Shown here: positions 5,048 through 7,269 of the stretch, one piece after another
How positions within the stretch are numbered: position 1 is the stretch's first letter
How the letters are laid out: each line of letters starts with the position of its first letter
From: an uncultured Myxococcales bacterium
GTDB lineage: Bacteria; Myxococcota_A; Polyangia; Haliangiales; Haliangiaceae
Direction of reading: 5' to 3'
Assembly (NCBI GenBank): GCA_942492525.1
Contig: CALOFI010000005.1
Span: 1-64,000, forward strand
DNA: 64,000 bases
Position numbers and translations under genes: made by a program
Notes under the pieces: generated by a model
Database searches by the model: none
What the model saw: only the letters and a program-made list of their open reading frames with translations
What the model was told of the DNA's origin: nothing

Positions 5048-7269
5048 ATGTATTTTATTAATTACCGACGCATTGTGATGTGTGCATGTGCTTGCCTTGT
5101 ACTGTTTGGTCACAGCAGTCTTAAAGCCGCAGAGTGGGAGACAGTGGTAATAGATGACAGTACCTGGACAGGTCAGTACACCTCCCTTGCCCTGGACGGG
5201 AGAGGCAATGCCCACATCAGCTACTATGATGAGACCAACCGGGATTTAAAGTATACGTACTTTGACGGGGATGAGTGGCAGATTGAAACAGTTGACAGTG
5301 TAAATAATGTAGGCCAGTACACCTCCCTTGCCCTTGACGGGAGTGGCAATCCCCACATCAGTTACTATGATGAAACCAACCGGAATTTAAAGTATACCTA
5401 CTTTGACGGCAGATGAGTGGCAGATTGAAACAGTTGACAGTGTAAATAATGTAGGCCAGTACACCTCCCTTGCCCTTGACGGGATGGGAATCCCCGCATC
5501 AGCTACTATGATGAAACAAATAAGGATCTGCGTTACGCTTATTTTGACGGCAGTGAGTGGCAGGTTGAGATAGTTGACAGTGTAAATAATGTGGGTCAGT
5601 ACACCTCCCTCGCCCTGGACGGAGATGGGAATCCCCACATCAGCTACTATGATGAAACAAATAAGGATCTGCGTTACGCTTACTTTGACGGCAGTGAGTG
5701 GCAGGTTGAAACGGCTGACAGTGTAAATAATGGTAGGCCAGTACACCTCCCTTGCCCTTGACGGGAGCGGGAACCCCCGCATCAGCTACTGGGATGAAAC
5801 CAACAGAGATCTGAAGTTTGCCTTCTATGAGGATGGCTGGCAGGTTGAGACGGTTGAGGCCGCCAACTGGGTGGGGCAGTACACCTCCCTTGCCCTCGAC
5901 AGCAGTGGGAATCCCCACATCAGCTACTGGAATGAAACCAACAGAGCATCTGCAGATACACACTCATCACCCCCCTGGTACTGGGAGTGTGGAGACATCA
6001 GACAGTTGATAGTACATTGACATTGTAGATAATTTACTTCTCCTTGCCCTGGACGGAGTGGTACCCCCACATCAGCTACTATGATGAAACCAACCAGGAT
6101 TTAGAGTTACCTGCTTTGACGGGGCAGTGACTGGCAGACTGAGACAGTGGACAGTTTTGGTTTAGTGGGTAAATATACCTCCCTTGCCCTGGACAGCAGC
6201 GGTTACCCCCACATCAGCTACTATGATGAAATCAACCGTGATTTAAAGTATGCCTACTTTGACGGCAGCCCCTGGCAGGTTGAAACAGTTGACAGTAGTG
6301 GCTGGGTAGGCCAGTACACTTCACTTGCCCTGGATAGTGGCGGTTACCCCCACATCAGCTACTGGGATGAAACCAGCCTCAGTTTAAAATATGCCTACTT
6401 CGACGGCATCGCCTGGCAGGTTGAGACAGTGGATAGTGTTGGATTAGTGGGGCAATATACTTCCCTTGCCCTGGACAGCAGTGGTTATCCCCACATCAGC
6501 TACTATGATGAGGCCAATCACAACTTAAAATATGCATACTTTAATGGCAGCATCTGGCGTCTTGAAACAGTTGATAATATTGGCAGGGTAGGGCAGTATA
6601 CTTCACTTGTACTTGACAGTAGTGATAACCCCCGCATCAGCTACTATGATGAAACCAATAAAGATCTGAAATGTGCCTATTTCAATGGTAGCATCTGGCA
6701 GATTGAAACAGTCGACAGCAGCGGCTGGGTGGGCCAGTACACCTCCCTTGTTCTTTTTGACAGTGGGAATCCCCCGTATCAGCTACTATGATGAAACGAA
6801 TAGAGACCTGAAATATGCTTACTTTGACGGTAGCTGGCAGATTGAGACAGTTGACAGCAGTGGCTGGGTAGGTCAGTACACCTCCCTTGCCCGTGACGGT
6901 AATGGGAATCCCCGCATCAGTTACTATGATGCAACCAATGGTGATTTGAAATTTGCTGCAATAATTTCCCACCTCCGGGACTACCACTATTCTACTACTA
7001 CTACAGTTCCTACAACTCCCACAATACCCCCTGCTTTAATATGTTTAATATTGTGGCTCTTTGGTGAGGACGCGGAAGAAACAGTGATCTTAAGGAATGT
7101 GCGAGATACCATACTAAGCGAGACACCTGAAGGTAGATCAATAATAAGGCTCTATTATCAGTGGAGCCCTTTACTGGTACAAGCGGCAGCGGAAGATGAA
7201 GAGCTCAAAAAAGATATGAAAGCAGTAATTGATGGTTTTTTGCAATTGATGAGTGTTGGCAAAGAATAG
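5048..7269 (+). pseudogene. Degenerate tandem-repeat protein gene (about 17 copies of a 43-aa unit), multiple frameshifts
   Basis: N-terminus MYFINYRRIVMCACACLVLFGHSSLKAAEW looks like a signal peptide. The repeat consensus is about [47 protein letters not shown]. The ORF track splits the gene into pieces in frames 2, 0, 0 and 1 (5048..5416, 5730..6020, 6147..6791, 6673..7269). Visible indels include an extra a at about 5411 (gacggcagATGAgtgg) and an extra g at about 5733. Units around 5460 and 6000-6146 are degenerate. Confidence 0.55.
5130..6960 (+). repeat. Tandem 129-nt (43-codon) direct repeat array inside the repeat-protein gene
   Basis: Near-identical 129-nt units are visible in the nucleotide sequence. 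Examples are ...ggccagtacacctcccttgccctggac...cacatcagctactatgatgaaaccaac... Confidence 0.7.

Follow-up and report, generated by a model that had tools for sequence, protein, structure and literature searches.

The repeat gene and its encoded protein

We analyzed a window of 64,000 nucleotides (nt) from an uncultured Myxococcales bacterium (assembly GCA_942492525.1, contig CALOFI010000005.1, positions 1 to 64,000), near the start of which a gene on the plus strand (5048–7269) hosts an array of tandem coding repeats, each a predicted β-propeller blade. An original prediction, made from the letters alone, had described the gene as an array of about 17 units in a signal-peptide protein, either decaying or mis-called during assembly. 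Three contigs with the same gene order served for comparison. L001 is CAVVWZ010000080.1, from the 'uncultured delta proteobacterium' metagenome-assembled genome (MAG) MFD03551.bin.2.80 of Microflora Danica, and matches the window with BLAST identities of 86–89% (about 91–92% in the flanks). L036 is 92.7% identical to the window, and L035 is more distant.

Tandem Repeats Finder detected the repeat at 5170–6938, with a period of 141, 12.5 copies, 75% matches, and a score of 1119. The anchor C[AG]CATCAG[CT]TACT recurred with the same 141-nt period, individual spacings ranging from 138 to 152 nt. Alignment of the units by MAFFT gave 13 units, 12 full and one partial, and a hidden Markov model (HMM) of the unit likewise found 13 in the window gene. 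The repeat unit is thus 141 nt, or 47 amino acids (aa), long by repeat finding and anchor spacing, and the originally predicted unit of 43 residues (129 nt) had omitted a 3-residue linker; the count of about 17 is replaced by 13. Nor are the units near-identical at the DNA level, as had been proposed: pairwise identities in the unit-versus-unit matrix range from 42 to 92%, and the only close pairs are u1/u2 (92%) and u3/u4 (90%). The features of the gene are as follows.

5036–5041, plus strand: Shine–Dalgarno-like AGGAGG, 6 nt 5′ of the ATG at 5048 (direct reading)
5048–5128, plus strand: probable Sec signal peptide, MYFINYRRIVMCACACLVLFGHSSLKA (by eye from the translation)
5129–5169, plus strand: N-terminal strand, AEWETVVIDDSTWT (sequence comparison)
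5170–6962, plus strand: blade array of 13 units (Tandem Repeats Finder, anchor spacing, unit alignment, unit HMM)
5170–5310, plus strand: unit u1
5311–5451, plus strand: unit u2
5452–5592, plus strand: unit u3
5593–5734, plus strand: unit u4
5735–5872, plus strand: unit u5
5873–6024, plus strand: unit u6
6025–6166, plus strand: unit u7
6167–6307, plus strand: unit u8
6308–6448, plus strand: unit u9
6449–6589, plus strand: unit u10
6590–6730, plus strand: unit u11
6731–6869, plus strand: unit u12
6870–6962, plus strand: unit u13, partial
6963–7035, plus strand: Thr/Pro-rich linker (translation; composition kept in L001 and L036)
7036–7266, plus strand: C-terminal CFI-box-CTERM domain (NCBIfam NF041770 match over 7066–7233)
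7305–7350, plus strand: intrinsic-terminator-like hairpin, 14-bp stem with 9 G–C pairs, then TTCTTTTTGT

The N-terminus resembles a signal peptide, with a basic n-region, a hydrophobic core, and L-K-A ahead of the mature end, and L001 and L035 have equivalent N-termini. Together with the AGGAGG upstream, this agrees with the signal-peptide protein of the original prediction. The strand that follows (AEWETVVIDD) resembles the final strand of the unit (WQIETVDS), and relatives begin with the same 'WxIExVD' in alignments. By this resemblance, the N-terminal strand probably completes the final partial blade and closes the ring.

At the extreme C-terminus lies a CFI-box domain of about 70 residues. 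NF041770 (cutoff 40) scored 44.6 bits on the open reading frame (ORF) 6673–7269 and 42.9 bits on the frame-corrected protein, the match covering HMM positions 11–66 of 69 and ending 11 residues short of the stop. This tail contains no long hydrophobic span and is conserved in seven related fragments. A search for an intact close orthologue bearing the CFI tail returned just these seven fragments, of 59–148 aa, from broken or truncated copies, and a literature search on 'CFI-box' found no papers. An AlphaFold2 model of the last blade plus the tail was loosely helical with a predicted local distance difference test (pLDDT) score of 48.9, from which no conclusion was drawn. The signal-peptide-like N-terminus and the CFI-box tail belong to one protein only upon frame correction. 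Downstream, the terminator-like hairpin begins 36 nt past the stop codon; a consensus scan found 2 such sites against 2.4 expected by chance, and its support is its position and stem length, with the chance expectation not exceeded.

Protein family and fold

In Pfam and NCBIfam scans of the window protein, no repeat model matched the array, and in this sense the array is of an unrecognised type, as originally described. The label does not extend to the family, whose blade is extremely common in environmental bacteria. A word-indexed search gave at least 7,641 proteins at E ≤ 1e-5 among 8,000 candidates listed, with a top identity of 57% among the matches listed, and when an intact 200-residue fragment of the window protein was searched exhaustively with phmmer, 25,842 cluster representatives matched at E ≤ 1e-3, of which 18,259 also reached E ≤ 1e-10. 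In addition, relatives pass the Pfam model BNR_4, and the C-terminal domain has a name. The relatives are intact proteins of 700–1250 aa. Among the best 120 (P0001–P0120), the unit HMM counted 14 units in 85, 13 in 19, and 15 in 8.

The fold evidence comes from a model of a relative, P0067, which is 52% identical to the window protein. Its AlphaFold model (pLDDT 90.7) is all-beta and consists of two seven-bladed propellers. The canonical module is thus predicted to have 14 blades arranged as two seven-bladed propellers, and the seven-bladed propeller expected of BNR_4 is found in the model. The structural matches, with the scores listed, were CylK (34.1), the lectin BP39L (31.1), integrin alpha (28–30), the lectin PLL (28.6), FoRham1 (26.5), and the GH145 protein BACINT_00347 (26.1; 18% identity).

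The window protein itself had no BNR_4 match at E ≤ 1, either as the frame-corrected protein or as an intact 214-aa fragment (threshold 27.3 bits). By comparison, 17 of 41 close relatives passed that cutoff, P0067 with 72.3 bits, and their matches fell repeatedly on one blade of the model (HMM 228–270). The canonical Asp-box SxDxGxTW (motif per PMC8377490) was not found in the unit, which reads S-L-A-L-D-x-x-G-x-P-H; this is reminiscent of an Asp-box, but the spacing and the T-W differ. Taken together, the window protein appears to belong, as a new member, to a very large propeller-repeat family that is uncharacterised and loosely tied to BNR_4.

Several other matches were set aside. Pfam TPR_18 (PF13512) scored 30.2 bits against a cutoff of 21.9 on the 214-aa fragment and was regarded as a repeat artefact, since the modelled fold of the family is all-beta. 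NCBIfam Ralst_lectin (21 bits against a cutoff of 100) was rejected, as was an NCBIfam HisB match, below cutoff or of the wrong fold. PDB sequence matches to lamprey VLR (E about 0.5) and to designed TIM barrels (repeat bias) were considered spurious.

A short conserved tail, ..[VI]YLP[LVM][VIL]x[KR].., closes many of the best 120 relatives and looks like an undescribed C-terminal sorting motif. The variety of C-terminal ends among the relatives implies that the same propeller module has been joined to many anchoring systems.

Frame breaks in the repeat gene

As originally predicted, indels split the gene over several frames. By reading all three frames and mapping the unit HMM onto them, we located at least six frame switches (about 5412, 5483–5495, 5731–5736, 5945–6062, 6106–6123, and 6766–6773) and one stop codon (TAG, 6026–6028). 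The underlying lesions are listed below.

5411–5413, plus strand: frame break 1, one base extra in u2 (GACGGCAGATGAG), not in either relative
5481–5484, plus strand: frame break 2, one base lost in u3 (GACGG-GATGGG)
5731–5736, plus strand: frame break 3, one G extra at the u4/u5 boundary (AATAATGGTAGG)
5935–6146, plus strand: corrupted stretch, second half of u6 and most of u7
6766–6773, plus strand: frame break in u12, one C extra in AATCCCCCGTATC, not in either relative

Per kb, the window has about 4 frame breaks in the repeat gene and about 1 in the flanks. The corrupted stretch contains extra bases at 5948 and 5955, the TAG, and further indels at about 6017–6130. Its identity to L036 is 74–81%, with 30 mismatches and 10 gap columns per 150 nt, versus about 90–95% across most of the remaining alignment. 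The unusual second half of u6 is real, because it is common to L036; unit u7 of L036 is clean, unlike the corrupted u7 of the window. Degenerate units had been predicted at two places, of which the region 5935–6146 was borne out, and the other, at about 5460, proved normal apart from the loss of 1 nt at about 5481.

The repeat gene is also fragmented in L001, L035, and L036, at other positions, and no break is common to any two assemblies. Unit numbers are 13 in the window, 9 in L001, 7 in L035, and 14 in L036, of which only 7 and 14 fit a seven-blade geometry. Relative to L036, one whole 141-nt unit is absent from the window at the u4/u5 boundary, the site of frame break 3, and the absent unit is among the most similar ones (90–92% identical). 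The copy in L035 (5086–6447), with 7 units only and the same CFI-box tail, would form a single seven-bladed propeller.

We then compared the reconstructed frame of the window with those of its relatives. Mismatches at codon positions 1, 2, and 3 numbered 33, 46, and 107 against L036 (chi-square p = 1e-11) and 24, 36, and 100 against L001 (chi-square p = 3e-14). Among differing codons, 93 of 170 (L036) and 84 of 140 (L001) were synonymous, that is, 55–60% versus 21% expected (p about 1e-22). This pattern points to strong purifying selection on the reconstructed frame between the relatives.

Neighbouring genes

The order PilY1, PilX, pilins, four-helix-bundle gene, GspH-like gene, divergent repeat gene, Hc1, PepD, SurA is common to L001, L035, and L036. 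The neighbours of the repeat gene in the window are listed below.

1–4768, minus strand: type IV pilus operon (tip and minor pilins), the C-terminal part of PilY1 open to the window start
1855–2397, minus strand: PilX-like gene
2472–2858, minus strand: four-helix-bundle gene (TIGR02436, 23S rRNA intervening-sequence protein type), within the minor-pilin operon
3040–3774, minus strand: prepilin-type gene
3674–4078, minus strand: prepilin-type gene
4148–4768, minus strand: GspH-like gene
7482–7679, plus strand: small basic 65-aa ORF, weakly similar to histone H1-like HctA/Hc1 (NCBIfam E = 0.002)
7824–9138, minus strand: PepD (aminoacyl-histidine or beta-Ala-His dipeptidase), split over three frames

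The minor-pilin and GspH-like genes (1855–4768) lie on the minus strand, so the repeat gene is indeed divergent from the minor pilin operon, as had been noted. This adjacency says little about function, because it is conserved just among very close relatives. The four-helix-bundle gene occupies the same place in L001, L035, and L036, an odd yet conserved passenger. The Hc1-like ORF is kept between the repeat gene and PepD, and its counterparts in L035 and L036 carry Pfam Hc1. In L035, an extra minus-strand gene of 290 aa with no Pfam match (6566–7438), not present in the window, lies between the repeat gene and Hc1.

Breaks were found in the neighbours as well. The pieces of PepD in the window match consecutive parts of the TIGR01893 HMM (47–205, about 239–272, and 300–476), and relative to L001 the gene has private 1-nt indels at 8365, 8491, and 8658; in L001, L035, and L036, PepD is intact at 488–490 aa. 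Similarly, private indels relative to L001 at 3083, 3664, and 4107 shift the starts and ends of the pilin ORFs in the window, and the pilin genes are intact in L001 and L035.

Beyond PepD, the GC (guanine plus cytosine) content changes from 43–52% (about 47%) up to about 9100 to 70–80% (about 75%) across the following 55 kb. Similarity to L001 and L036 ends exactly at 9138/9139, where both go on with the N-terminus of PepD. The joint truncates PepD at HMM position 47 and, on its other side, a high-GC ATPase-like ORF (to 9840, minus strand). Judging from these discontinuities, the window is chimeric at 9138/9139, either through chimeric assembly or because unrelated contigs were concatenated.

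Assembly errors as the likely source of the frame breaks

We consider it likely that the repeat gene is normal and functional in nature, and that errors of consensus and collapse account for its frame switches, its stop codon, and the lack of a 14th unit. Decay is disfavoured because each assembly has lesions of its own, the genes alongside are damaged as well, and synonymous changes are in excess. The relatives come from an error-prone source: Microflora Danica MAGs were assembled by Flye from Nanopore reads only and polished once with Medaka (PMC12313526), and L035 and L036 bear 'contig_N' names that suggest assemblies of the same kind. Frame switches recur at the same within-unit contexts, in non-orthologous units and in different assemblies, eight of them in the DGxGNPH stretch, a cluster that was defined after the data were seen; such recurrence suggests context-dependent error. 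With most of the best 120 relatives having 14 units in intact proteins, L036 having 14 units and a clean copy of the corrupted u7, and the absent unit being among the most similar ones, we read the missing 14th unit as a collapse, though a real deletion is possible.

The errors most likely stem from an error-prone, probably long-read, metagenome assembly, which would strike a tandem array harder than unique sequence: reads may have been set in the wrong register among units 70–92% identical, and strains of differing unit number may have been mixed, degrading the consensus.

Some observations weigh against this explanation. The case for consensus errors is made by comparing assemblies, and the errors were not seen in reads. 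The breaks of L001 and L035 concentrate in the repeat gene and their flanks look clean, so that the gene is a hot spot in every assembly. The homopolymer density of the gene is not above that of its flanks, its longest run is 6, and run length is altered in only about half of the small indels; we therefore rejected homopolymers as the cause of the surplus indels in the array. Finally, the stretch 5935–6146, far more damaged than elsewhere, could be a real lesion.

That the gene is a genuine pseudogene, recently inactivated here and independently in the relatives by real indels, a nonsense mutation, and loss of one unit, seems unlikely to us. Its main point is the one just given, that the gene is broken in all four assemblies beside clean-looking flanks in L001 and L035; the breaks are, moreover, present in the sequence, the stretch 5935–6146 is heavily damaged relative to L036, and unit numbers of 13 and 9 misfit a seven-blade geometry. 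However, no lesion shared by descent was found among the four assemblies, and relaxed selection was not seen; the synonymous excess indicates that the frame has been kept by selection through nearly all of the divergence. In the window, lesions are not confined to the repeat gene, PepD carrying three private indels and the pilin genes about three. Four independent multi-hit inactivations of a selected gene would be unparsimonious, and with the longest homopolymer run in the gene being 6, we know of no mechanism for frequent 1-nt indels outside long homopolymers. Of the two fates that the original prediction had offered, mis-calling during assembly is thus favoured over decay.

Proposed function of the protein

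If assembly error is the correct explanation, the host, an uncultured 'delta proteobacterium'-type organism, would encode a protein with a Sec signal peptide, a closing strand, canonically 14 blades, a Thr/Pro linker, and a CFI-box-CTERM of about 70 residues. The order of these domains, like the fold and size of the family, is shown by the analysis. The protein would be exported through Sec and may form two stacked or adjacent seven-bladed rings with many equivalent sites. By analogy, it is probably an exported, regular, multivalent binding module of the lectin or adhesin type, and not catalytic. A binding role is proposed because the blades are near-uniform and recently duplicated, leaving no blade-specific active site, and because the structural matches include lectin and integrin propellers, which score at least as high as GH145 and FoRham1. 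It counts against this proposal that it draws on fold analogy and blade regularity only.

The product of an intact gene might instead act enzymatically, as a BNR_4/GH145-type glycoside hydrolase or polysaccharide lyase, which we regard as improbable. GH145 rhamnosidase BT3686, for example, has its catalytic His, His48, on the posterior face. Close relatives do pass BNR_4, and GH145 and FoRham1 have the highest sequence identity (18–19%) among the structural matches. However, the BNR_4 matches all lie on one blade of the model and the window protein has none; the regular, recently duplicated blades (u1/u2, 92% DNA identity) leave no blade-specific catalytic residues; and lectins and integrin propellers match structurally as well or better.

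We think it very unlikely that the breaks and unit numbers are real, in a surface double-propeller gene that always adjoins the PilY1/minor-pilin operon and is recurrently reshuffled and inactivated in every sampled lineage; if true, the locus would be a hypervariable, contingency-like one at the surface, driven for instance by phages or predators, and its indels would arise by a mechanism independent of long simple repeats. We give the least credence to a hypervariable, contingency-like locus at which frame and unit number switch within the population, turning a pilus-adjacent propeller on or off or reshaping it: close relatives do differ in unit number (7, 9, 13, and 14), breaks recur in the same sequence contexts, and all four contigs keep the gene adjacent to the PilY1/minor-pilin operon, but the gene lacks a long simple-sequence tract (no homopolymer exceeds 6 nt, and most break sites are non-repetitive), several simultaneous breaks per copy cannot act as a switch, and the synteny holds only among very close relatives.

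Implications and comparison with known systems

The biological weight of the gene is small, as it only extends a very large family of exported propellers by one, although it is noteworthy in itself that so large a family has no studied member. The practical value of the analysis is as a quality flag on the low-GC 9.1 kb of the window: the unit count of the array in this segment is probably wrong, gene and 'pseudogene' calls made from it are not trustworthy, and at 9138/9139 it is artificially joined to unrelated sequence of 75% GC.

Propeller lectins (Photorhabdus PLL/PHL and Burkholderia BP39L) have a like fold, a like blade length, and regular repeats rich in aromatic residues. Unlike the window protein, they are single propellers of about 350 aa without a CFI-box tail, and PDB sequence searches revealed no sequence relationship to PLL/PHL/BP39L or to Ralstonia RSL. 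The family BNR_4 (PF15892), to which GH145 BT3686, BACINT_00347, and the lyase FoRham1 belong, likewise has the seven-bladed propeller in common with the window family, and GH145 and FoRham1, both seven-bladed propeller enzymes (PMC8377490), show the top sequence identity among the structural matches (17–19%). A further likeness to this group lies in weak profile matches to 5mum, 5mvh, and 4irt (E values of 1.5–2.3). Its members are, however, single-propeller enzymes with blade-specific active sites (PMC8377490), whereas the window family is predicted to have a double propeller with near-uniform blades.

The closest known systems are the 14-blade 'YTSLALD...PHISYYD' proteins of environmental bacteria and archaea (such as P0067, P0076, and P0053), some of them labelled PKD- or FlgD-domain proteins. 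They share with the window protein the 47-residue unit, the probable signal peptide, and the N-terminal closing strand, at 40–57% identity over 80–90% of the query, and have 13–15 units (mode 14) in predicted tandem seven-bladed propellers. They differ in their tails, which are of the YLPLV type, FlgD_ig-like, PEP-CTERM, PGF-CTERM, PKD, or transmembrane anchors. In the window gene the propeller is paired with CFI-box-CTERM, a tail present in 0 of the best 120 relatives, and this pairing is the only unusual trait of the gene. With the proteins of NF041770 the window protein shares the C-terminal position of the domain, in the window gene on a putative signal-peptide protein, and the start of the Cys-hydrophobic box (LICLILW), the box reading C-L-I in the window versus C-F-I in NF041770.

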